Positions 8,153 through 64,000 of a stretch of DNA of 64,000 nt are shown one piece after another (within the stretch, counting starts at the first letter, position 1; each line of letters opens with the position of its first letter). A model generated the notes under the pieces. That model saw only the letters and a program-made list of their open reading frames with translations, ran no database searches and had not been told where the DNA came from. The DNA lies in the NCBI GenBank assembly GCA_000165345.1, contig CM000434.1, positions 96,001 to 160,000 on the forward strand, given 5' to 3'. The position numbers and the translations under genes are program-made.

Positions 8153-9744
8153 TTATTTGCTCTTCTTTTCCAGTAAAGATTCTGATGAGTTCAAATCTTG
8201 AACTTTCCATTCATTTGAATTAAAGTTTTCAATTCTGCGAATCATTGATGGGAAAATAAATAAAGTTGCAATCACACCAAAAATAAAACAAAATAAATAT
8301 TGTATAAAGAAAGAGTCAACTTTGCATGGATTTCCAATTAATAAAAGAAAATAATTGGAAAATTTGCTGTAATCAATTGGATTTTCATTTAATTCACAGT
8401 ATTTATAGTTTGTATAATCCAAAAGCCATAAACTAAGACTTTTTGGCCATTTATATCCTNAATTCGTTTANTAGNATCTCGAGNTNAGGCTAGATGTANG
8501 TTCCAGCAANTCTGTANANCAGAAATTAAATTAAAAAGAGTCATAAATATAAGTGATTGTGAATCACATAAAATTGATGAACAAATTGAAAGAGCCAAAT
8601 AAGTATAGTAAAACAAATTTGGTGTATCTGCAACTTCTTCTGTGTTTATCCATGGCTTATATATTATTCTAGACCATATTAATAACAAACAAAAAAATAA
8701 TGACAGTATTAATTTTAATGGTAATATTATAGTTAGAAATTTAAGTGGGGATTTTCCTTTGTAAACAAATTTAGTCATAATAAACGGAGTAATAAAACTG
8801 AATGGAATCAAGATTGGTCCAATAAGCATAATTTCACTCTTTTTCATACCAAATTCCATTAATTTAAATTCCAAAGATGAATCTGTTATTGCTGATGGTA
8901 TCCTAATAATAAAGAGCAAAATTATTAGTGAAATAACTGGTTTTAATGTTAAAATTTTATATAGAAGAGAATAAGCTTCTTTAATAGTAAGCTCAGCTTC
9001 TTGATCCTCTTGAGCAGCATCATCATCTTTTTTATTATCTATTACGTTTGTGTAAGAGTTATCTTCTTTTTTAAGTATTCCAGTAATTATAGTAACCAAT
9101 AATATAACTACACCCCAGAAATAGATAAATTGACTCATTTTACAAATTGGCTTGTCAACAATTTCTAATCCAAGTAAAGGACGAACATATTTATTACATA
9201 CTTTTGGATCATTTAAGAATAAAAATCCCAAATAAGACGTAATGTGTCCAAAAGATTGACCAATTATATTACAAGTTGATGCTAAACTTTTATGCTGAGG
9301 AGAAAGTAAATTTACTGCCCAAGCATCAACTGCAATATCTTGAGTAGCCATTAAAAAGTATAATGTTGAAAAATATATTGTTAATAAAGTAACGTTTGGT
9401 GATAATTTCTCCGTTAAATTTGATATACCTACTTCCTCACATAACCAAGTTGGAAGAAATGGGCTATAACTACCAATAATCATCAAAATACTACACACAA
9501 GTTGAGTTGGAATAATCCATGTTTTTCTTCTTCCCATCTTTTCTATATAAACTGAATCTACCAAAGGAGCCCAAAGTAATTTAAGTGAGAAAGGAAGTAC
9601 AACCATTCCAAACATACTCTGTTCTGTATATGATATTTTACCTTGTAAAAGAAATGGAATGGAATAACTAATGCCCATAGGAAGACCTTGAATTGTATAT
9701 AATATTAAAAGATAAAAAATATTTAAACATTCCAGAAGATCCAT
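8153..9744 (-). CDS. acetyl-coenzyme A transporter 1 (SLC33A1/AT-1 family, MFS) homolog; frame ambiguous across N run 8458-8520
   Basis: YTIQGLPMGISYSIPFLLQGKISYTEQSMFGMVVLPFSLKLLWAPLVDSVYIEKMGRRKTWIIPTQ aligns almost residue-for-residue with human SLC33A1 (YVLQGIPLGLAGSIPLILQSKNVSYTDQAFFSFVFWPFSLKLLWAPLVDAVYVKNFGRRKSWLVPTQ). C-terminal ORF 8153-8422 matches the SLC33A1 C-terminus (FFIQYLFCFIFG... cf YYVESIICVFIGFGWW). Confidence 0.8.
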
Positions 9745-22186: not shown

Positions 22187-23485
22187 GAATATTATATTAG
22201 AAATATTACTTTAATAAAAATTTGTTCTTTTTGTTTTGTTTTGTTTTTTTTTTTTTAAAGCCTTGTTATCCTCCTTGACAAACGAATTACAAAAAAAAAA
22301 AAAAGTTAATTTAAAGATGTTTTTTTTTTTTGTTTAATTTTTTTTTATTTACCGGAAACCCCTATTAATATTAAATAAAAATTAATATGATGCACAAACT
22401 TGCCCGCCTAAATGTGGCGCCGAAAGGCACAATACGGTACATGCGAAATTATCAGTATATAAATAATAATATTTGTGCAATTTAAAGGTATCGTAAATTA
22501 TGAATGAGGAAATAAATAAAAATGTAATTTTTTTTTTTTAAATTATAAATATTATAATGGGTAACGTCTAATTAAATAGTCAGATCTGATTTTTAGATTA
22601 TGCAATTATAATTAATTACTTGTAAATAATATGTATAAATAAATAAATAAATAAATAAATATATATATATATATATATAAATACATAATATATTTACATA
22701 CAATATTATATATATGTAATGCAATATAAACATTTTTTTATAATATATATATTACATATACATTTATGTAAATGTGTATAATATAAATATTAATAAAAGT
22801 TGATTTCTTTTTTTCCTTTATAATTAATGTGCATAAAATAACAGAGAAAAAAAAAATAGACAAATAAATTACATGAATTCCAATAAAATATATTAAAAAG
22901 TTGGAAATTAATTGATTAATAAAATTTTGGATTAAGACGGAAAATAATAAAGGCGAAGATTATTAATTATTTATATATACAATAATAATATTAATTATTA
23001 TTGTTGATATTATTAACATTACTACGAATAATTAATTGAATTAGTCAGAAATTTAATAATCAAGAAATAACAAATCAATTCATCTTTAATTTAAAATCAA
23101 CTCATCAAAGATTATATTTGGAAAAATTTTGGATTATTTTTAATATTTTTTTTACTATTATTAGTACATTAATATTATTTTCTAATTTATTATTATTCAA
23201 AATTATTATTATTATTACTATTATTACTATTATATAATAATAATATTAATTATTATTATTATTATTATTATTATTAATATATTATCACTTGGCAAAGTTT
23301 ATTATATCAGGAAAGATAAAAACTTGACTAATTTAGATTTTAGAGTTATTGGGAATTAAACTTGAAAATGAAATTTAATCTTTAATTTATATATTAAAGC
23401 TTCATTAATATATATTATGTATATAAAAAAAAAATAATAAAGATTTTATAATCCAAGACCAATTATTAAGTTGAGTTAAGTTCAT

Positions 23486-26998: not shown

Positions 26999-27306
26999 TT
27001 CTTCCATATTATATTGAGAATGTAATATGATGGTATCTTAATGGTATCGTAATGGTAAATTAAGCTTGGTATTCTTTTATTTATTTATTTATTTATTTAT
27101 TTATTAATATAATATATGGGATGATGGTTTTATTAATAAATTTGAATTTCTACTATTAAAATATTCAAATCACTTTGTTATTTTTTTTGGGTACATATTA
27201 AATTTTTGATAGGAATATATATTACCTTCAACTTTATTGCCACAATTGTTAATGTAATTTGTTATTAATGGCATTGAAAATTTAGTATTAGAACTATGTT
27301 AGTAAA

Positions 27307-34939: not shown

Positions 34940-35505
34940 TTTTATTATTATATTTTTATATAAATATAATAATAAATTCACATATTCATTATTCTTCTAC
35001 TTCATTCATGGGAAAACAAATAATTTAATGAAAATCATAAACTAATTCACATTTTTTTATTACATGTTTAAATTCTCAGCCTACCGATTATTTCTCAGCA
35101 TGCTGAATTACACTAAGATCAACATCAGCGCTTCCCGCCTAAATTAATTGTCACAGTTTACCACAATAAATAGTAAAATGGGGTACCGAATAATATAAAA
35201 TAAATAATTGAAGTATAAATAAATATTGGAATATCAATAATTAATGTAATACACTTTTTTTAAACGAATCAAGAGGGTGGACAGGAAGCGGAAAATACAA
35301 TCAATAATATAAATAGACCAAAAGTATTCTAAAAAACTTTTCTGAGTTAAAGAGTTTCAAAATTCTATTATATTTAATAAGGGAAGCTGATAATCGCTTT
35401 AAGCAATAGTTTGATTGGAAATACTATACGGTCACCAATTTTTGAAGATTGGAATTTCTTGATCTGTAAATAGAACAAGTAATAACCTGTAAGTATTTAA
35501 AAAAA

Positions 35506-39853: not shown

Positions 39854-39866
39854 CGGTACCTATTAT
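39854..39866. promoter_or_regulatory. cggtacctattat 13-mer (also present in the inverted repeat at 61969-62008) within GC-containing promoter cluster between rpl23 and cpsf2
   Basis: Identical 13-mer at 39854-39866 and 61972-61984. Nearby three copies of (G/A)GCGGTAA at 39940-39947, 39961-39968 and 39990-39997. Confidence 0.3.
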
Positions 39867-40636
39867 TGTGTCTTTTTTGTGAAGACTTTTTTAAGGAAAG
39901 TGGAGGGGGTTAGCATTCATGGTATTTTGACGCCAATTTGGCGGTAATATATTTGCAAATGGCGGTAACTTGGAACTTTAACAAATGTCAGCGGTAAAAA
40001 ATTATATATTGTATGTAAATATATTATTTCTAAAATTAATAAAAATATTTTGAATATAAATAATTTATCATAAATTGTTTAAATTTAGAAATAGGCTTAT
40101 TCACTTAAAAAATTGTAATCTATAATATACACATATAATTCTTTTCAAATAATTGAGCAAAAATTGATTATTTATAGTTCTTACAATAATATATTTATAT
40201 CTTCAAAAATTGCACATTATTACACACTTTTTTAAATAAAATATAATTTTGACAAAAAGTAATAATGAAAAGGCGGGCTACAGTCGAATTTTAATTAATT
40301 GTGATCATGTAAAAAAAAAAATAATAAAATAGTAAATAAATATTCAAATATACTTTCATTACTATTTAGTAATTATTTGTATATTTCAATAAAATAAAAG
40401 AAGCAATCCAAGTAATTTACTAAGTTAAAGATTGTTTATTTAAAAGATCAGTAACTATTGATATTTTAGATAAATAATAATTAAAGGTAAAAAGGTATCG
40501 ATATTTTAAATCAATTATTATTTATTTATTACAAATATATACATATATATTTGTTTAAATATATTTTAGTAATAATTATTATTTATAATTATTACTTATG
40601 ACCGATTTTTATTGAGTATTTATTATTGTTTATCTT

Positions 40637-44362: not shown

Positions 44363-44373
44363 TATACCGGTAT
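44363..44373. promoter_or_regulatory. TATACCGGTAT motif upstream of gene 44537, flanked by tgtccacat (44332-44340), gcatgcatt (44376-44384) and tgtccac (44427-44433)
   Basis: Read directly. Confidence 0.3.
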
Positions 44374-44536
44374 TTGCATGCATTATTGCGCAATTACCGA
44401 ATGCAATTTTTTTGAAATTAATTTCTTGTCCACTTAACGCGGACGATAATAAAAATAATTATATAAAAAAAGTCAAAAAGTAAAATAAAATTTATTAAAT
44501 TAAAAAAATAATAAATTTATGTATAAGATATAATTA

Positions 44537-47500
44537 ATGAAAGAGAACAATGATATATTTAAAGGAAAGAATATAGATGGGAAGATTTTGGTTCCATTGT
44601 CATTCCATAATTCAAAGAAAAGCAGGTAAGTAATTGGTTAATCTAAATTGAATAATATAATAAATAATTAATATACTTATATAATATATATATTTTTAGT
44701 TCACCAATATTAATATCTCAAGATTTATCAGAAAAGTTATTTAAAAAGTATGGCAATCAAGAAAATTATTTTGAAATTATTAGCCATTTGAATCCAGAGT
44801 GTGATGTTATTTATTTTCAGTTGAATAATAGAATTGTGACGGAAAATTTTAATATTGGAGGATTATCAGTTTTAGACTATGTGGTTAGAAGTTCAGGTAT
44901 ACCATTAATTAGACAAGAAGTAGAAATAAGAAAAGTTATATCAAAGAAAGATATTGAATTAACAATAGTTGAATTATCTTTGCCAGAAATACATATATCA
45001 CCAAGAGATTTATGGTATTATGAGAAATCTTTAGTTGGTAAAATACTTTATAATGGAATTTCACCACAAATTACTTATGAAATTAATCAATATTTACCAA
45101 TAAGTATTACAAGAATGGGAAATGAAAATGAAGAAAATAATATGAATAAAAAAATAATCATTTCAGGATTAGTTACAGATGATACTACATTCTTTATAAG
45201 ACCAAAGTCTGTAAGAATTATATTTATTGTGATTATTTCAAAAGAATTTTTTTGTTTTTCCAGTAATGGTTTTCCATGGTGGAGAGGAATTATTTCATTT
45301 TTCAAAGAATATTTAACATCAAATAAACAATCTATAGAGCATCATTATATTACAATACTTTTAGCATGGAAAGTTAAAGAAGAAACAAAAACTATGGATT
45401 ATTATCAAGTTTTTTGGGAGGGAGTTCTTTCTCATATTACATTAAGTCAAACAAGTATTAATAAATTTGTTGAGAAATTAAGAAATATAATGATTTCATT
45501 TCAAAAAAATCAGAATCTAATTAAGAGTTTAGTATCATATTGTGAATCAAATATTTTGGAATCTATTAATCTTGCAGTAACACAATTACAAAATGATTTA
45601 ATTGATGGATCTATTGTATGGACAGGAAGAAATATTAAAGTACTTAGTTCAGGTCCTCCAATTATTATAAGTGACTTAGAAAATTATCAAAGATTACTAA
45701 ATTTATCAAAAATCACAGAAGTTAGATTTCTAAAGACATCAATTACTTGTGATTTTATATCTTTCTCTGAGCTTAATTGGTATCATTTTTTAACTATATA
45801 TATAGTAAAAATAAAAAATAGTCTTTATCAAGAAACACTTAAAGAAATTAAATTAAAGATTCCAATAACAATTTCATATTACAAGATTAAAAATATATTT
45901 TATAATGATTATAATGGCAATTTCAACTTATCATCTACAATTACCTTGTTAGATGAATATATAGATGATAAGTTTTATTTTAAACAAAGTAAAATTCAAA
46001 TTGAAGATAATGAAAATGAAGATGATTGTGAAAGTGATATTGATTTAATTTTAAGTGGTAAAGATTTAGTGGTGAGAAATATATCAAGCTTTGTAAATAA
46101 AAAAGAAAGTTTTGAATATAGTTTGAGTGACTTTGATAATTTTTCTAAAGATCTTTCTTCAAATAATAAGCCTAAAGATTATCAGTATATAAATGAAATT
46201 GAATTATTAAGTCATTCACTTGGAACTTTATTATTGCCTTTAACTACAAGTAACTTAAGTAAAATTGATATTGAGAAAAATATTTCTAATTCAAAGGATT
46301 TAATATTAAGTGAGATTCAAAGAACATCAAATTGGACATTAACTCCCAGAAAAGAGTTGTTTCTGGCATATATTTGGAAAAATTATCGAATAAATAATCC
46401 AAAACTGATTAATTGTGATTTTATCGATTATTCAACATTTACTGATAAATCTGAAAATAAAGATATAAATATTGAGATTTTAAGATTAATATATTACGAA
46501 TTGATTGTACACAGAATGTCAATGTCTTTTCAAATTTCAACTTTCAAATCAAATAGTATTATAAGTCATTATAATTCAGAAAATATACAAATGTTAAAGT
46601 GCTATAATAGCTTAAGTAATAATATTATTCCAAATTATAATTGCATTCACCAATTAATTTTACTTAAAGAAGATAATAATATTTTAGTTGAAGTTATTGA
46701 TGCAATTATACAAGATAATAGTAATAACAGTACTAGCGCTGGAATTGGTATCAGTACAAGTACAAATACAAATATTAATACTGGTAATTGTACTAAAAAT
46801 GATAATATGAGCTCAAATTTGAATTCAAATATTATTAATAATAGCTCAAATAATAATGATAATGGTAATAACAAAAATGAAACATTTTCTATTGAAGTAA
46901 ATCAAGAAAATAATTCAGTACCATTTTATACATTTCTACCAAAATCTATTATTAATTCACAAGATATTAATGAAAATGAATTAAAAAATATAATAATTAA
47001 TTACAAATATGAATATTTTCTTTATAGAAGTAAAAACCATGACTACAATGATATAATTTCTGAAAAGCCGTTAAAAGGTAAATATATTAAATACTATACA
47101 ATTTTTAATAATTTNNCTAATGTTAACTTTAGTACAGNGGANGANATNNNNGTCTNGCAANGNGANATTCCTTTTATTAATGAACTCATAAATGAATCAT
47201 TTAATGAATTACTTAATTACAACTTTGACAAGAATAATTTGGATTATTATTATCTTTTAACATCATATATATCTGGCTTATCAATCAGTTACATTCACTT
47301 TGCATTTATTCCTTTTGTTAAAACTAATAATACTAGTACAAATATTATTAATTTCTACACCAATAAATCTGAACAAAATAAAAATGTTACTAATGATATT
47401 TTAAATTTTGATCAAGATAATAAATTTGAAATTTTAGATTGTTATTCAAATTATTACAAAGATTGTTGTTTGGCAAGTATTCTTAATAATTGGATTAAAA

Positions 47501-48264
47501 TTAATTCAGTAAATAATGATCAATTAAAGGAAATGGTTGATTATAATATTGGTAAGATTGATGATGAATGTTTAAATATGAAAAATTTAAAGAAGATTTC
47601 AGAAATTAATATCAAAAGTTTAATCAAATCATTAGAATCATTCTTTTTTAAAAATGCACCTTCAAATATTGATCATTCATTTAATATTGAAATTATGAAT
47701 GATCATAATTATTTGAAAAATGAAAGAAAATCTATAAAAATTTTATATTCTTGGTGTGAGACTTTTGAACATATTAAAGAAGAATATGAATCTGAATCAA
47801 AAGAAAAATACAGGGAAATTAATCTTAATTNTAACAATAATAACAATAATAATAATAATATTAATGTTAATCATAATGGTATTGATAATATTGATACCAA
47901 TAATTTTGAACCTATTAATTGGTTTGTAATATACTATGATTCTATATGGCATTCTCTTTTACCATTAAAATTTTCAATTGGGTGGTTAACTTGTCCATCA
48001 ATTCTAATTTCAAGAATTGTAAGAAAACTTAAATCAATTCTACTCAATTATAACTTTACATTAATGCAATTAAGATCATCTGATGTCTATTCATCATATG
48101 AAATTTTTCCAGACAACTCAATCTTATCATCATATACTCCATTAAATCCACCATATCTTATCAAATTCAAAAAATCTATTTCAAATAACACTTTGAAATT
48201 ATTACTTAAAAAATTTATATCTTTTCCACTTTCTTTACAACTTATATATTTNGNNCAAAGGTAA
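44537..48264 (+). CDS. large (about 1190 aa) protein of unknown function, two exons: join(44537..44625,44700..48264); contains N-derived X residues and ends next to an N-rich low-quality block
   Basis: Exon 1 ATG at 44537 (MKENNDIFKGKNIDGKILVPLSFHNSKKS) ends ...agcag followed by GTAAGT at 44626. A 74-nt AT-rich intron ends tttttag at 44699. Exon 2 continues in frame (phase 2) into the long ORF listed as 44788-48264, whose listed Met is actually an in-frame TTG Leu. No recognisable catalytic motif. Confidence 0.5.
44626..44699 (+). other. intron (GTAAGT...TTTTTAG, 74 nt)
   Basis: Canonical donor and polypyrimidine-AG acceptor. Splicing joins two in-frame coding segments. Confidence 0.5.
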
Positions 48265-49520
48265 TTCTATTTCAAGATTTTTTTCTTGNGGAATNCTCAT
48301 AGTATATATTCATTGGAATTAAATCAAAATGCTATATTGGTAAGAATTTAATTATTATCAATATTTTGGAAAAATCCATTTTCAATATGATTCATTTTCC
48401 TATACTTAAATGTCCTTGGTTCAAGTTCAATGTTTGATCCAAGTTGGAGAAATNATATATTTCATTTTCATTTNAAACATATCAAAATAATTGTCAAAAA
48501 CATGCATATTNACCGGTNAAATNACAATTACATGCAATTTTGGTTAAATGAAAGCCCGCCNTGTCTTGAAAAATATNACTATAGAATTAAATACAAAAAG
48601 GCAAAAATNNNCACAAAAAAAAAAAANGTTNTAATTAANGNAAAAATTTTGAATTTTGGTGATTTTTTTTGTGTGGAGATGGTAAAAAANAGTGAAAAAT
48701 ACGTTGATTAACTTTGATTAATGTAGAAAANAANTAGTGACACTTGGTAGCTTGGAAAGCATTAAATTAAAGCTTGGTAAGAATTNTTTNTGAGAAAATT
48801 AATGGAATTNAACAANGAAAATTTAATTTANAACTAANAGTCATTTTTGAATCANAAGATGATANAATATTNAAACTTATCACTGATTATATTCATTTAA
48901 TGAATAGAAGAGTATGTGGTNGAAATCAAAATAATAATGATACTAATTCTCTGNATATTATGTGATNCAATAATTCAAGAATGTGAAACAAAGAATGGTA
49001 AGAAGAAATTTACTGTATTATTATCAAAAAGTGAAGATTTGGAAATTATTTCAAATGAAATGGATTCACAAAATAATCAAGATACTGGTCTATTATATTA
49101 ATTGGAAAATAAGAGATAGAACAAAANCACTATGAATTAGTGGGATTATTATCTCAATCAATTATTTCTGAGTTTATTTTTCCAAACTCTATTCTACAAT
49201 ATTCAAATTCTAGATTATTTTTAACTTTATTATCATCCAATAATCAAGAATTAATATGGAGTTCTAATACTTTCTTAATGAATAATTTTATTAAATACAA
49301 GACAATTGATGAAGTAGAAAATAATCAAATAAATGATGATAATACAATGATATATTTAACTACTTTACAAAGTAATAATGGTAATAGTAATGGAAACCTT
49401 TTTATGTTTACAATGAATCAAAAAATAGAATAATCAATAAAAACCAAGTTAAGTTTTGAAGGTATTAAAAAATATAAAATTAAAGAGATTATTGAAAGAA
49501 GTATTAGATTACATAGATTA

Positions 49521-50321: not shown

Positions 50322-52321
<2,000 letters not shown>

Positions 52322-52563: not shown

Positions 52564-52584
52564 ATACGGTACCCGGTACCGTAT
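52564..52584. promoter_or_regulatory. 21-bp near-perfect palindrome atacggtacccggtaccgtat (two GGTACC cores) about 245 bp upstream of ATP synthase alpha start
   Basis: Read directly. Only the central base breaks the dyad symmetry. Followed by GC-rich gcccgcatgacacgcac. Confidence 0.35.
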
Positions 52585-55936: not shown

Positions 55937-58681
55937 TTATTCATAACTATTAAAGCTAGAAGATGTATCAGAAGAGTAAGAAGAATCTGATGAATTGTTG
56001 ATATATATACTGGAAAGTGATATGAATCCTGGCTCATGATGCAATAGTGGGGATTTTCCATTGTTATTGTTTTTTATTAAATTTTCATTACCACAATAAC
56101 TAATACTATTGCTACTACAACTGTTGTTGTTATAATTATTATCGTCATTTTTTTTATCATCTGAATTAGTAACAATAAAAGTTTCATTTGATTCAGTTGC
56201 TGAAATATATATTGACTCAAATGTTGAGCAATTCGAATTCTTTAATGAACTTTTCAAATCAGAATCAGATTCAGATTCAGATTCAGAAATTCCATTTTTT
56301 TCAAAATCATCATTAATATCATGATTATTATTATTTCCAGTATATTTAATATTCATTAATTCATCATTTCCATTCAAGTCTTTCAAGTTTATTAATTCTG
56401 GAAGCCAAATATTGCATTTATTAATATTTGGTCTTCCAATTATGGAAAAATTATATTTCTCAACTATATCGTTCGAGTCAATACTTCTATTATTTGAAAT
56501 TAAATCATTAATTGACTTTACTTGATCAAAATATTCATTAATCCAATTCTGGATCTCTTTAATAACGTCTTTAAAAAGATTTGGATCGCCTTCTTGAGAT
56601 TTTATATCATTACCTAATTTGTATAATATATTATAAATTGGATATTTACAAGCTTGATTATTTTTTGACAATGTTAAAATAATCATTTTTATGGATATTT
56701 CTTTATTATTAATATTAATAATAACTTTCTGTTCAGATTTATCTCTTAATATTTTAATGGCTCTTCTATATTCTTTTCTATGAATCAGAATATTAATCAA
56801 GATCTTGATATTATTCATTCTATGAGCAGTATCCATACAAATTTGTTCCAACCAAGATATATTCTTTAATTTGAAATATTTTGAAGCTTGATTAATACCA
56901 TTTTCATCCAAAACTTTGCTATTAAATCTAACATGTCCTTCTTGGTTTGTTTTGGTTGATGGTAATTCATCTTTATTTCTATTAAATAAGTATAATTTAT
57001 AAAGCTCCCTCAAGATCTTATTAGAATCTTCAAATATATGGTATTGCAATACGTATTGTAAAAGTGATTCTCTTTTTGTATGAAAAATTAATATAAGAAG
57101 AATATTATAATATTCTTGGTTGATTTTCAATTTCATATCAACTTTAATTTTAATTATTTCCATCAATATTGTAAAGACTTTTGGACAAGGTTTCGCTGAA
57201 ATATCATTACTATCATTATCATTATCATTATTGTTAATTTCTTGATTAACAAGTGATTTTAACTTTTCTAAAAGTATACTATCCCATAAAATATTTCTAT
57301 TGGAAATAAATGGCAATATATCCATCTTTTCAATACTTAATATGTTTTCAATTAATAATTCGTCGCAAAAATTCAGTCTTGAATATTGAATCTTGTTAAT
57401 ATCCAACTTTATTACTATATTACAAGATGAATTAACAAGAAGTATATGATAATTGTTCAAATGTTGGTTTTTTATCTTTTTTAAAGATTTCATATACATA
57501 TCATTTTTATTATTATCATATAAACAAATTATTGTATTATCATTCAATTCATCATTAAATAATGTTGGTACCATATAAAAATGACCTATATTATTATCAG
57601 TTTCAAGTTTTTTATCTTGGTCAGAATTTGAATTAATACTTTTTGAAAAATTCTTGTTATTATTTTTAACAAGTTTAATATCAAAAAGACCAAATACTTT
57701 TTTTCCATGAAGATTTATTACGACAATTACGTTATCAATAACCAGTAATGTAAATTCTTGAAAATCTTCTCCAATATCTAAAACAAGATCAGAAGATTCA
57801 TGATTAAATAAATCTCTAAGTGATATTCTTTTATTGCTAGAATCAACATGAACACAATAAAGATTTTGATAAATATTTAAGAGAAATATATCTTGTTGTC
57901 TAATTTCAGCATTTAAAATAAGTTCTAAAGGTTGAAGTTTAATAGGTTTTTGTTGTTGATTCATACCAATATTAATATAAGGTGTGAGTATATTTGATCC
58001 AGTTTGTAATAAAATTGACTGAAATTCCATATTATACCAAAATTGAAGATTATTTTCATGAATTTGCCATATTGGATGAATACCATGTTCTTTTAAAGAA
58101 AATAATATTAATTTAGAATTGGTAATCATTAGAATTGAAGGATAATATTGTTCATTACATATTGAAGATGATTGATTTGATGAATCTTCCCACCATATAA
58201 CTCCTCTTAGAATTTGATTATTTTCTATATGGATTTTAGTCTCAATATAATCCACTTCATTCCATTTATAATTATTATCAATTTGTTTTTCCAGATTAAT
58301 TTTCCTAAGTACTAATAATTTGTGATTGCTTCTAGTATTTTTAACATTATCATCTTGTTGAATATATGCTAAAAATACAATATAATTATTTGTTTCTTCT
58401 CTTGTATTTATATACATGATAAGATGTGAAGGCTTGCATGAGAATTCTAATTCATATAATTTAGGTAGTTGATATTCAAACATTTCATTGGAATTAATTC
58501 TTAATAAACTATTATTTAATTTATTATATATAAGTGTATCTCCTTCATTTGTTGAATTAAAATAAATAAATTGTGATTCAATTAGTAAATCTTGATTAAT
58601 ATCAAGTTTTTCTTCTTTTTCAAACTTGTTTAACTCATCTTGATTAATTTGCAAATATCCAAATTTCGATACTTTATCCAT
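55937..58681 (-). CDS. RMC1/Mic1 (regulator of MON1-CCZ1, C18orf8-like) homolog with Asn/Ser-rich C-terminal tail
   Basis: NVIVVINLHGKKVFGLFDIKL matches human RMC1 NLVVVHHQDTETSVIFDIKL. VLQYHIFEDSNKILRELYKLY matches FLQYHVLSDSKPLACLLLSL. KVFTILMEIIKIKVD matches HKFVIAVLMEYIRSLN. Overall predicted beta-propeller-like N-terminus plus alpha-helical C-terminus. Confidence 0.5.
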   Translation of the reverse strand: MDKVSKFGYLQINQDELNKFEKEEKLDINQDLLIESQFIYFNSTNEGDTLIYNKLNNSLLRINSNEMFEYQLPKLYELEFSCKPSHLIMYINTREETNNYIVFLAYIQQDDNVKNTRSNHKLLVLRKINLEKQIDNNYKWNEVDYIETKIHIENNQILRGVIWWEDSSNQSSSICNEQYYPSILMITNSKLILFSLKEHGIHPIWQIHENNLQFWYNMEFQSILLQTGSNILTPYINIGMNQQQKPIKLQPLELILNAEIRQQDIFLLNIYQNLYCVHVDSSNKRISLRDLFNHESSDLVLDIGEDFQEFTLLVIDNVIVVINLHGKKVFGLFDIKLVKNNNKNFSKSINSNSDQDKKLETDNNIGHFYMVPTLFNDELNDNTIICLYDNNKNDMYMKSLKKIKNQHLNNYHILLVNSSCNIVIKLDINKIQYSRLNFCDELLIENILSIEKMDILPFISNRNILWDSILLEKLKSLVNQEINNNDNDNDSNDISAKPCPKVFTILMEIIKIKVDMKLKINQEYYNILLILIFHTKRESLLQYVLQYHIFEDSNKILRELYKLYLFNRNKDELPSTKTNQEGHVRFNSKVLDENGINQASKYFKLKNISWLEQICMDTAHRMNNIKILINILIHRKEYRRAIKILRDKSEQKVIININNKEISIKMIILTLSKNNQACKYPIYNILYKLGNDIKSQEGDPNLFKDVIKEIQNWINEYFDQVKSINDLISNNRSIDSNDIVEKYNFSIIGRPNINKCNIWLPELINLKDLNGNDELMNIKYTGNNNNHDINDDFEKNGISESESESDSDLKSSLKNSNCSTFESIYISATESNETFIVTNSDDKKNDDNNYNNNSCSSNSISYCGNENLIKNNNNGKSPLLHHEPGFISLSSIYINNSSDSSYSSDTSSSFNSYE

Positions 58682-59214
58682 TTTCTTCTATTTTTCTCTG
58701 GTTATTTAATTTGATAGTTATTATTTTTTTCAGTATAAATGGATAGAGTGTGTCAATTCAATATATTGATACTTGTTTCTTTCTTTATTATTAATCCCAA
58801 TTATTTTTTTTTAATTATTTAAATCTTAACATAATTAATTTTCAATATTCATTAATCTTACACATTTATTATTACATACATATTTTAATATTGTTGTATT
58901 TCCCGCCAAAATAACTCCTTTTTTTCTTCCTTTTCTTCCCATAATTTTATTTATATCATCCCCTCTTTTTTCTTTTATTTTTCTTCCTTATTTTTCTTTT
59001 TATTCTTTTTTTCTTCTTCTTCTTAATTGTAATATATAATTTACATGTTACTATTTAAATTTATTTATATATTTGTAAAAACAAACAATCAAAAAGAAAT
59101 AACGATATTTACTTGGATTTGTTTGTTTGATTTGTGTGTCATGTGCGCCCTTTAAGTAATCCTTGACCACATGCTCTTTTATTTTGCATTCCGAAGCAAT
59201 TACCGCGCGCGGGA

Positions 59215-59225
59215 ATACCGGTACC
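59215..59225. promoter_or_regulatory. ATACCGGTACC (ACCGGT overlapping GGTACC) preceded by cgcgcgcggg, upstream of RMC1-like gene
   Basis: Read directly. A GC-rich 25-nt island in AT-rich DNA. Confidence 0.3.
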
Positions 59226-59301: not shown

Positions 59302-61911
<2,610 letters not shown>

Positions 61912-61968
61912 AATTTAAGAATTTTATTTATAACCACCAAAAAAATATTATTATTTTTTAAATATAGG

Positions 61969-62008
61969 TATCGGTACCTATTATATTACAATATAATAGG
62001 TACCGATA
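61969..62008. promoter_or_regulatory. 18-bp perfect inverted repeat tatcggtacctattatat / atataataggtaccgata separated by 4 bp (taca), 58-97 bp upstream of the snfA-like ATG
   Basis: Arms at 61969-61986 and 61991-62008 are exact reverse complements. Each arm contains a GGTACC core. Sits in the short region between the AMPK-alpha start (61911, minus) and upstream AT-rich DNA. Confidence 0.45.
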
Positions 62009-62567
62009 TTTAATATTCAAATAAATGTAAAGTTTTTCGAATGCTTTTTTTTATGTATCACTCTTCCTTTCTTTATTTCGTTGTGGTTTTTGTTTCTATT
62101 CTTTTATTATTCTTCTTTTATATATATATTAGTATATATAAACAATTTTTACTTGAATATAATTTCTTCATTTCTTATACTTTAATGAAACATTTTGTTT
62201 TATTTAAAAAAAAATAAAATGTTATATTTATATTTATTGAATAATTATTGAAGAAATATTTTTAACTTCAATTTACTTTATCTATTTTAGATTATAATTC
62301 TCATTCTTCTTTAATGTATATCTTCGTAAACTTTAATAAAAGAATTGTTAATTTTATTATATAAATAAATATATTTAATTGGAATATTATTACTTAAATT
62401 TTCTTTTCGCTTTTTTTTCTTTTTTTCTCTCCCCCCCCTTTTTCTTGAATTTCTTAACATGAAATTCGATACCTCTTTTCTTTAAATTAAAAAAAAAAAG
62501 TATTCCCCCTATAATTATTTTTTCGTTACCTTTTTTTAAATAAGGTACCTATATTATCATCCAATTC

Positions 62568-62606
<39 letters not shown>

Positions 62607-62848: not shown

Positions 62849-64000
62849 ATGGGTACCATTTCATCAATAATTAATTATTTATTACTATTAATAGCCATTT
62901 TGAATATTAAACAAACAGAAAAATTAACTTTAATAAATTCCTCCAATAAAATTATTAACCATATAAACTTATTGAAAAATGATGAAATTTTTGAAGTTTC
63001 TGGTAACTTGACCAATGAAGATGTATATAAATGGGCAACATCTTATCGTGATTATGAACAAGATTCAGAACATGATCATGAAAATGACTATGATGCTGAT
63101 ATTGAAGATAACATTGATGATGATGATGATGATTATGATGATGATGATCATCATCATCATCGTGATCGTATTCATAATAACAAATATGAAGATCATAACC
63201 AGTACCAAAACTCTCTTAGTTTAAATAAATCAAAACTTATATACTCAGACTCCGAATCTTTCCTAATTAACCCAAAATTAAAGAATATTTATGATTTTTC
63301 AAATAATAAACAAATTTATAAAACCATTAATGTATTAAATGTGAATGGAGAAATTATACCATATGATGTTTTTATCACTAATATTACCATACCACTCTTT
63401 GAAGTGAAAAATTCACTTTTTGTATGTAGAATTAGAATTGGTGAACCTGAACAAGAATTTTGGCCTATTATTGATACTGGAAGCAGTAATCTTTGGGTTA
63501 TTGGAGAAGAATGTAACCAATCAAGTTGTCAAAAAGTTAAAAGATATTCGAAATATATTTCAAAATCATTTAAAAGAATTTCCAAATATGATAATATTTC
63601 AGTAATTTTTGGTACTGGTAAAATTTATGGTAAATTAATTCTTGAAACACTTAAATTTGATAATTTCCAACTTAATAAACATGTTATTGGAATTATTGAA
63701 CAAGTGGAAAATACTGAAAATAGCAAAATTGATATATTTGATGCAATCGAACTTGAAGGTGTACTTGGACTTGGATTTACACAAATGTCTTCTTCAAAAA
63801 AACTTCAACTACCTTTAATTGAAAGACTTCAAAGTCAAGGACTTATTCAAAATAATATATTTTCTATATATATTAATGATTATAGAATTAAACCAATTAA
63901 TAATAATGATAAACTTTCAAAACCTTGTGCTATTTTATTACTTGGTGGAATTGATCAAAATCTATTTGAAGAAGAACTTCATATTCTTCCAGTTATTAGA
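62849..64000 (+). CDS. pepsin-family (A1) aspartic protease precursor, 5' complete, runs off the 3' end of the window (at least 384 aa; only the first catalytic Asp motif is inside the window)
   Basis: ATG at 62849. Signal peptide MGTISSIINYLLLLIAILNI. Open frame with no stop to nt 64000, so it is absent from the supplied ORF track. Catalytic motif FWPIIDTGSSNLWVIGEEC (DTGSS) and downstream ...VLGLGF... flap region. Unusual Asp/His-rich propeptide segment (DDDDDDYDDDDHHHHRDR, 63100-63165). Confidence 0.8.
   Translation, partial: MGTISSIINYLLLLIAILNIKQTEKLTLINSSNKIINHINLLKNDEIFEVSGNLTNEDVYKWATSYRDYEQDSEHDHENDYDADIEDNIDDDDDDYDDDDHHHHRDRIHNNKYEDHNQYQNSLSLNKSKLIYSDSESFLINPKLKNIYDFSNNKQIYKTINVLNVNGEIIPYDVFITNITIPLFEVKNSLFVCRIRIGEPEQEFWPIIDTGSSNLWVIGEECNQSSCQKVKRYSKYISKSFKRISKYDNISVIFGTGKIYGKLILETLKFDNFQLNKHVIGIIEQVENTENSKIDIFDAIELEGVLGLGFTQMSSSKKLQLPLIERLQSQGLIQNNIFSIYINDYRIKPINNNDKLSKPCAILLLGGIDQNLFEEELHILPVIR

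Follow-up and report, generated by a model that had tools for sequence, protein, structure and literature searches.

A palindrome upstream of an SNF1/AMPK-family kinase gene and a recurring GGTAYCG motif in Cryptosporidium promoters

Gene regulation in Cryptosporidium is little understood, and for several of the predicted DNA-binding proteins no target site has been assigned. In the stretch of C. parvum chromosome 6 analyzed here (64,000 nucleotides, called the window in the following), a perfect inverted repeat with GGTACC cores lies upstream of a protein kinase gene. An earlier note on this DNA had regarded the repeat as the type of dyad bound by dimeric transcription factors and had connected it to energy metabolism. 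The locus raises the question whether the complete repeat or a shorter sequence within it is the unit that recurs in promoters and is kept between species, and whether this unit is likely to be regulatory. The survey for the motif covered about 64 kb of C. parvum DNA and about 150 kb of orthologous DNA.

The inverted repeat and its surroundings

The repeat is located between a kinase gene and an aspartyl protease gene, together with further copies of its core:

59302..61881, reverse strand: coding sequence of an SNF1/AMPK-family protein kinase, 859 aa, true ATG at 61881
61967..61973, forward strand: GGTATCG copy overlapping the left arm of the palindrome (GGTATCGGTACC), third motif copy of the kinase-proximal cluster
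61969..62008, no strand: inverted repeat of 40 bp with the arms 61969-61987 (TATCGGTACCTATTATATT) and 61990-62008 and the spacer AC
62467..62473, reverse strand: GGTATCG copy in the kinase/protease intergenic region, kept in C. hominis and C. meleagridis
62544..62549, no strand: GGTACC in the kinase/protease intergenic region; C. hominis and C. meleagridis read CGGTACC, and a similar C. canis site is found at -478
62849..64000, forward strand: 5' part of the aspartyl protease gene, divergent from the kinase gene and continuing past the window end; codons 2-3 are GGT ACC

An exact inverted-repeat search confirmed that the repeat with its GGTACC cores is real and perfect, and showed that the arms comprise 19 bp each instead of the 18 bp previously noted, with a spacer of 2 nt. 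The cores are located at 61973-61978 and 61999-62004, 26 bp apart from centre to centre. With spacers of up to 10 nt allowed, this is the longest perfect inverted repeat of the window; all other inverted repeats of at least 14 bp consist of (TA)n or (TAA)n, and the one at 61969-62008 is the only one that contains G or C. None of the first-order Markov simulations (n = 30) produced an arm of at least 10 bp with at least five G/C. The kinase promoter contains three overlapping or adjacent motif copies within 45 bp, which are GGTATCG at 61967, CGGTACC at 61972 and GGTACCG at 61999.

The intergenic region between the two divergent genes is 967 bp long. The distance of 58-97 bp between repeat and start codon given previously had been measured from 61911, which is a TTG and the mechanical start of the open reading frame. 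Since the first ATG at 61881 lines up with the annotated starts of C. hominis, C. tyzzeri and C. meleagridis, the palindrome is located 88-127 bp upstream of the kinase start codon. The nearest named relatives of the kinase are Cryptosporidium proteins termed 'histone kinase SNF1' or 'AMPK alpha' and plant SnRK1; the label 'snfA-like' is a Dictyostelium name that is inapplicable to C. parvum. The C-terminal half of the protein (59600-60200) contains long low-complexity runs of poly-Ser and Gly/Asn/Arg, and its orthologues range from 638 aa (C. muris) up to 866 aa (C. hominis). Precomputed Pfam matches of the Cryptosporidium kinase proteins contain no AMPK C-terminal regulatory domain (KA1, AdenylateSensor).

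A transposon terminal inverted repeat, a MITE or a dispersed repeat was considered as the origin of the palindrome and rejected, since the arm is found at a single locus and the spacer is just 2 nt long. Even with up to three mismatches allowed, the AT-rich part of the arm has no second occurrence in the window. Between the two genes, a (TA)n microsatellite (62571-62602) differs in length among C. parvum, C. hominis and C. meleagridis (alignment columns 270-310); in the C. tyzzeri assembly this place is covered by a gap of Ns. The window contains 69 ambiguous bases (N), clustered for instance at 8460-8519, 47115-47166 and 48252-48639, which suggests older draft-quality sequence. They result in X residues in the kinase and other open reading frames, and the RWD-kinase reading frame is interrupted at about 29650. 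The reading frame of 914 aa at 55937-58681 (reverse strand) is identical to EAK89761.1 of C. parvum Iowa II.

A recurring seven-base unit

The hexamer GGTACC is found 16 times in the window compared to 1.66 expected, and at least 16 copies were present in none of 100 shuffles. Eight of these sites are intergenic, in line with the previous count of at least seven and far above chance, and eight are coding; an apparent ninth intergenic site (62852) corresponds to codons 2-3 of the aspartyl protease gene, which starts with the ATG at 62849. In coding DNA GGTACC is about 6-fold above expectation. This milder excess is explained by codon usage, since five of the eight coding sites are in-frame GGT-ACC codons for Gly-Thr, including two in RPL23 and the protease codons. 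An additional C before or G after the hexamer is present at seven of the eight non-coding sites, compared to three of the eight coding sites (binomial P ~6e-5 at 20% G+C). The one-base variant GGTATCG recurs in intergenic DNA as well. The recurring unit is the 7-mer GGTAYCG, with CGGTACCG as its palindromic form.

Altogether, 17 copies of GGTAYCG were found in the window (0.68 expected). The 17 kb of non-coding DNA contain 13 of them, where 0.20 are expected and the highest count in 200 dinucleotide shuffles was 2; coding DNA contains the other 4 (0.39 expected). G+C content is 25% in the coding and 20% in the non-coding part of the window. Sites containing GGTACC are about 20- to 65-fold over-represented in non-coding DNA. 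In a ranking of non-coding hexamers GGTACC comes fourth, after GGCGCC and CGCGCG (both E2F-type) and ACCGGT, and the AP2_1 core GCATGC ranks below it. Twelve of the 13 non-coding copies are located in promoter-containing intergenic regions. Apart from the kinase/protease region, the sites are:

22487..22493, forward strand: GGTATCG in the divergent region adjoining a longin-SNARE gene, with a lone CGGTACA at 22435
27043..27049, forward strand: GGTATCG in a convergent (3'-3') intergenic region, the sole site not fitting a promoter location
35182..35188, forward strand: GGTACCG, 324 bp 5' of the alanyl-tRNA synthetase (AlaRS) gene
39854..39860, reverse strand: CGGTACC in the RPL23/CPSF2 divergent region, part of the 13-mer of the earlier note
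40494..40500, forward strand: GGTATCG (followed by ATAT), 143 bp 5' of the CPSF2-like gene, reading GGTATCGATAT
52564..52584, no strand: palindrome ATACGGTACC-C-GGTACCGTAT with perfect 10-bp arms, about 245-260 bp 5' of the ATP synthase alpha ATG (52321, reverse strand)
59215..59225, no strand: ATACCGGTACC, an overlap of ACCGGT and CGGTACC, adjoining the E2F-like CGCGCGCGGGA and 534-538 bp 5' of a Mic1/RMC1-domain gene

Several of these sites had been described before and were found again as described, namely the 13-mer at 39854-39866 in the RPL23/CPSF2 intergenic region, the palindrome upstream of the atp1-like gene, with its arms around a central C, and the ACCGGT overlap. The neighboring genes had likewise been named correctly as RPL23, CPSF2-like, ATP synthase alpha and SNF1/AMPK-family kinase. 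The E2F-like CGCGCGCGGGA and ATACCGGTACC (together 59204-59225) lie 83 bp 3' of the kinase stop codon. The ATP synthase alpha gene (50322-52321, reverse strand) is present as two open reading frames, 51278-52321 and 50322-51125. Its orthologues are called as single genes of 479-630 aa, and the two frames may reflect an intron or a sequencing frameshift; at the orthologous position of C. bovis no such gene was found.

The motif occurs singly or in homotypic clusters, with spacings of 7, 25-28 and 58-61 bp and in inverted as well as direct orientation. A reading as GATA-factor site, suggested by CGATAT or CGATAC after the core, was discarded because most copies are without GATA. The idea that energy metabolism is the common theme did not hold up, since motif-bearing promoters also include those of the genes for alanyl-tRNA synthetase, RPL23/CPSF2, the Mic1/RMC1-domain protein, the aspartyl protease and the longin-SNARE protein.

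A perfect palindrome with 19-bp arms is able to extrude as a cruciform, and the sites are found in divergent and tandem intergenic regions and in one convergent region. The palindrome could have a structural role instead of being a transcription factor site, for example as a cruciform, as a boundary or in the exclusion of nucleosomes, or in replication. Most other copies, however, are single 7-mers or short palindromes for which a stable cruciform is impossible, and what is conserved is a specific sequence and not a structure. A structural role is in our view very unlikely.

Comparison with other Cryptosporidium species

The order of the genes is the same in the loci of C. hominis, C. tyzzeri, C. 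meleagridis, C. canis, C. felis, C. bovis and C. muris. Cryptosporidium-like contigs with this gene order were also obtained in two assemblies from public reads, L013 (SRR31860986) and L014 (SRR31861040), the kinases of which are about as distant from C. parvum as the C. canis kinase. The 40-bp palindrome is found unchanged in C. hominis and C. tyzzeri. C. meleagridis has a single change, which is located in the spacer and generates a perfect 40-bp palindrome. An alignment of C. parvum to C. meleagridis (84% identity over ungapped columns) contains three blocks in which 39 or more of 40 positions agree, and the palindrome is one of them. This block conservation is suggestive, although it is not unique to the palindrome, and the conservation of all 40 bp in close relatives could largely be due to the short divergence time. 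The kinase promoters of C. canis, C. felis, C. bovis and C. muris do not contain the 40-bp palindrome.

The short motif is retained in the kinase promoter of more distant species. Direct GGTATCG pairs were found in the kinase promoters of the two read-set assemblies, at -130/-69 and -148/-90, and the C. canis kinase promoter contains one GGTATCG at -52. Among the species compared, the full palindrome is confined to the parvum/hominis/tyzzeri/meleagridis clade.

The promoters of AlaRS, CPSF2, RPL23|CPSF2, ATP synthase alpha, Mic1 and the kinase were compared in two to four further species, and the motif sites stand out as phylogenetic footprints: outside of them, four-way identity of the compared intergenic alignments is merely 10-16%. 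In the AlaRS promoter the C. parvum GGTACCG is aligned to GGTATCG in C. ubiquitum. In the CPSF2 promoter the C. parvum sequence GGTATCGATAT (-143) corresponds to GGTACCGATAT in C. ubiquitum (-118) and C. canis (-128). The CGGTACC core of the RPL23/CPSF2 region is kept in C. ubiquitum and the TATTAT flank is not, so that the 13-mer CGGTACCTATTAT was dropped as an extended motif. The ATP synthase alpha promoter contains motif sites in four species; C. ubiquitum and C. canis have two GGTACC each, 25-28 bp apart, the pair of C. canis being an inverted repeat, and C. felis has a single site. In the spacer between the kinase and Mic1 genes, GGTACC is located beside an E2F-like CGCGC word in C. parvum, C. 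meleagridis (L001 6532) and C. felis (L007 12457).

GGTAYCG is enriched in non-coding DNA of C. canis (6 vs 0.17 and 5 vs 0.11 expected), C. ubiquitum (5 vs 0.08) and one of the read-set assemblies (6 vs 0.14). In C. felis the enrichment is weak or marginal, and the C. muris and C. bovis loci compared contain zero copies, showing that the element is not genus-wide.

These comparisons bear on a possible role of the palindrome as RNA, in which the kinase mRNA (in its 5' UTR) or a non-coding transcript would form a stable hairpin that controls translation or stability. The predicted fold is very stable: the DNA fold of the repeat gives -17.2 kcal/mol (z = -7.7), and a 141-nt RNA from the hairpin through the ATG folds at -34.6 kcal/mol (z = -4.9). 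The lone substitution among the four species is located in the loop, and asymmetric motif copies are mostly GGTAYCG on the sense strand of the downstream gene, a trend based on small numbers. Against an RNA function, the arms are invariant in the four close species and covariation is absent. No hairpin is found in C. canis, C. felis, C. muris, C. bovis and the two read-set assemblies, and the direct copies of the short motif in distant species are unable to pair. A scan detected neither Rfam families nor tRNAs in the window, and none overlaps the palindrome. Because covariation, a counterpart in distant species and an Rfam or tRNA match are all missing, a role in RNA is ranked low and appears improbable.

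The palindrome could also have no function at all, if a recent inverted duplication had by chance included GGTACC and the enrichment were a compositional or mutational quirk. The limitation of the palindrome to close relatives would fit, as would the further blocks of the kinase/protease intergenic region that are just as conserved and the excess of GGTACC in coding DNA. This excess, however, is accounted for by the in-frame codons; furthermore, the non-coding sites have the extended consensus in common and recur at orthologous positions although the intergenic DNA is largely unalignable. A neutral origin of the whole pattern is unlikely, if somewhat less so than a role in RNA or DNA structure.

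The proposal that a single dimeric transcription factor recognizes the 18-bp dyad as a whole and co-regulates energy-metabolism genes (AMPK-alpha and F1-alpha) draws on the fact that two of the most striking palindromes are located upstream of the kinase and ATP synthase alpha genes. These two palindromes have just the CGGTACC core in common, and the AT-rich part of the arm is found at the kinase locus only. The core is also located upstream of the genes with other functions listed above, the non-palindromic GGTATCG takes its place at orthologous sites, and the kinase promoters of distant species contain direct and not inverted copies. We consider a dimeric regulator of energy genes acting on the entire dyad to be very improbable indeed.

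The over-representation in non-coding DNA and the retention at orthologous promoter positions support the view that the GGTACC-containing sites behave like cis-regulatory elements. To this extent the earlier interpretation is supported; the unit, however, is not an 18-bp dyad, since just a core of 6-8 bp recurs. Judging from the sequence comparisons, the palindrome is reasonably likely to be a homotypic cluster of a short cis-regulatory motif with the core GGTAYCG and CGGTACCG as fully palindromic form. Sites turn over between both forms: GGTATCG, which is not palindromic, stands in for GGTACCG at orthologous positions, and strict dyad symmetry is therefore dispensable. This interchange of C and T fits a monomeric or loosely dimeric domain, for instance AP2 or Myb. 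The motif would be bound by a sequence-specific DNA-binding protein, most plausibly an ApiAP2, Myb or zinc-finger factor, and this candidate factor would act at many promoters in the intestinal Cryptosporidium lineage. The long AT-rich arms would be a by-product of how the cluster in the kinase promoter arose. They probably stem from a local inverted duplication of one motif copy and its flank in the ancestor of the four species that share the palindrome. The duplicated palindrome would have taken the place where more distant species carry GGTATCG, either as one copy or as two direct copies.

Known motifs, the ACCGGT palindrome and promoter classes

Six motif families have been catalogued for Cryptosporidium, namely E2F, AP2_1, AP2_2, G-box, GAGA and CAAT-box, and the published lists also contain several unnamed FIRE motifs (PMC3734150 Table 1; PMC12246861 Table 3). 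Their consensus sequences include [A/T][C/G]GCGC[G/C][A/T] and TGGCGCCA for E2F, TGCATGCA for AP2_1, GCACAC for AP2_2 and G.GGGG for the G-box (PMC3734150; PMC12246861). Like GGTAYCG, the catalogued motifs are short words with G or C, many of them palindromic, which are strongly over-represented in AT-rich intergenic DNA and kept in different species, and the enrichment of GGTACC and ACCGGT in the window is of the same order as that of GGCGCC and GCATGC. However, no consensus in PMC3734150 Table 1 or PMC12246861 Table 3 fits GGTAYCG or ACCGGT. The 25 motifs and the supplementary files of PMC3734150 include neither GGTACC/GGTAYCG nor ACCGGT, and neither is found in the main text of PMC4117751 or in PMC1779779, PMC7840661 and the 2025 review PMC12246861. 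ATAC-seq of open chromatin in sporozoites combined with MEME reported E2F and poly-T motifs and not GGTAYCG or ACCGGT (bioRxiv 10.1101/2025.01.17.633476).

A full-text literature search for GGTACC, ACCGGT or GTAC in Cryptosporidium returned no relevant report; an earlier description is still possible, with the chromosome 6 study of Bankier and colleagues from 2003 and the supplements of the AP2 arrays outside the search. The abstract of this chromosome 6 study reportedly mentions just two abundant repeats, later equated with TGGCGCCA and TGCATGCA. Most likely, as far as sequence and published lists indicate, the GGTAYCG cluster represents a conserved promoter motif that is absent from published catalogues so far.

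The nearest apicomplexan parallel is the AP2-G-type GTAC motif GxGTACxC / GTGTACAC of Plasmodium and Theileria ApiAP2 factors (PMC4537280, PMC6631176). Like the GGTACC copies, it has a palindromic GTAC core, and it too occurs in double copies in promoters, which in Theileria are 6 bp apart. The AP2-G motif prefers G at -2 and C at +2, whereas the C. parvum sites read C-G-GTAC-C-G with the G adjoining GTAC; as CGGTACCG or TCGGTACCT they have C or T at -2. The GTAC core is present in the GGTACC copies and absent in the GGTATCG copies that replace them at orthologous positions. In the published texts examined, no Cryptosporidium AP2 domain is described as binding a site of this type. According to the main text of the ApiAP2 array study (PMC4117751), the C. 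parvum AP2 domain of cgd4_3820 (a PfSIP2-like ApiAP2) binds GGTGCACC in vitro, and the motifs of about five C. parvum AP2 domains are not listed there. The cgd4_3820 site is also a palindrome with the same outer half-sites GGT...ACC; it differs in its GC-containing centre, GGT-GC-ACC being 8 bp and GGTACC 6 bp long, and the spacing of the half-sites differs by 2 bp.

A second palindrome, ACCGGT, is similarly enriched in the window. It has 12 sites, mostly reading ATACCGGTAT, of which ten are intergenic:

2694, 2733, 3138, 7906, 14033, 33000, 44366, 48512, 54633 and 59217, no strand: intergenic ACCGGT

ACCGGT is likewise not found in the published Cryptosporidium motif lists examined. At two loci, the RWD-kinase|TRIP13 and CPSF2|IML1 intergenic regions, it is kept in C. 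ubiquitum, C. canis and C. felis, and one conserved site is directly followed by TTGCATGCAT. The composite ATACCGGTAT-TT-GCATGCAT (44364-44385), in which the ACCGGT palindrome precedes AP2_1, is conserved with hardly a base changed in C. ubiquitum and C. canis, and it is recognizable in C. felis.

ATACCGGTAT can be written with the same half-site CGGTA as GGTAYCG, in the opposite (everted) arrangement. The two are found in near-complementary sets of promoters. Among the 14 promoter-containing intergenic regions of the window, eight contain ACCGGT and six GGTAYCG, and the two are common to only one, where the sites physically overlap (P = 0.016; post hoc, n = 14). Jointly they mark 13 of the 14 regions. 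Words of the TGCATGCA type are present in all eight regions without GGTAYCG compared to one of the six with GGTAYCG (P = 0.003; post hoc, n = 14), ATACCGGTAT thus co-occurring with TGCATGCA and GGTAYCG promoters being without it. The complementary promoters and the TGCATGCA pattern suggest that another factor probably reads ATACCGGTAT, or that it is read in another context.

GGTAYCG/CGGTACCG and ATACCGGTAT might be two arrangements of the half-site CGGTA and jointly constitute an uncatalogued layer of promoter control specific for intestinal Cryptosporidium, a possibility that we regard as doubtful. If true, promoters of the window would fall into two near-exclusive classes, ATACCGGTAT being accompanied by TGCATGCA in the first and GGTAYCG occurring without TGCATGCA in the second, and the system would act as a general promoter-class selector rather than as a pathway-specific regulator.

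The finding leaves concepts unchanged, as it would add one further short promoter motif to a compact parasite genome. CRISPR-based genetics exist for C. parvum, and an enriched and conserved motif would be useful for the design of promoters in this system; with three copies in 45 bp, the kinase promoter is a handy natural test case. As a seventh motif, perhaps with ATACCGGTAT as an eighth, GGTAYCG would provide concrete sequences against which orphan AP2, Myb and zinc-finger factors could be tested.
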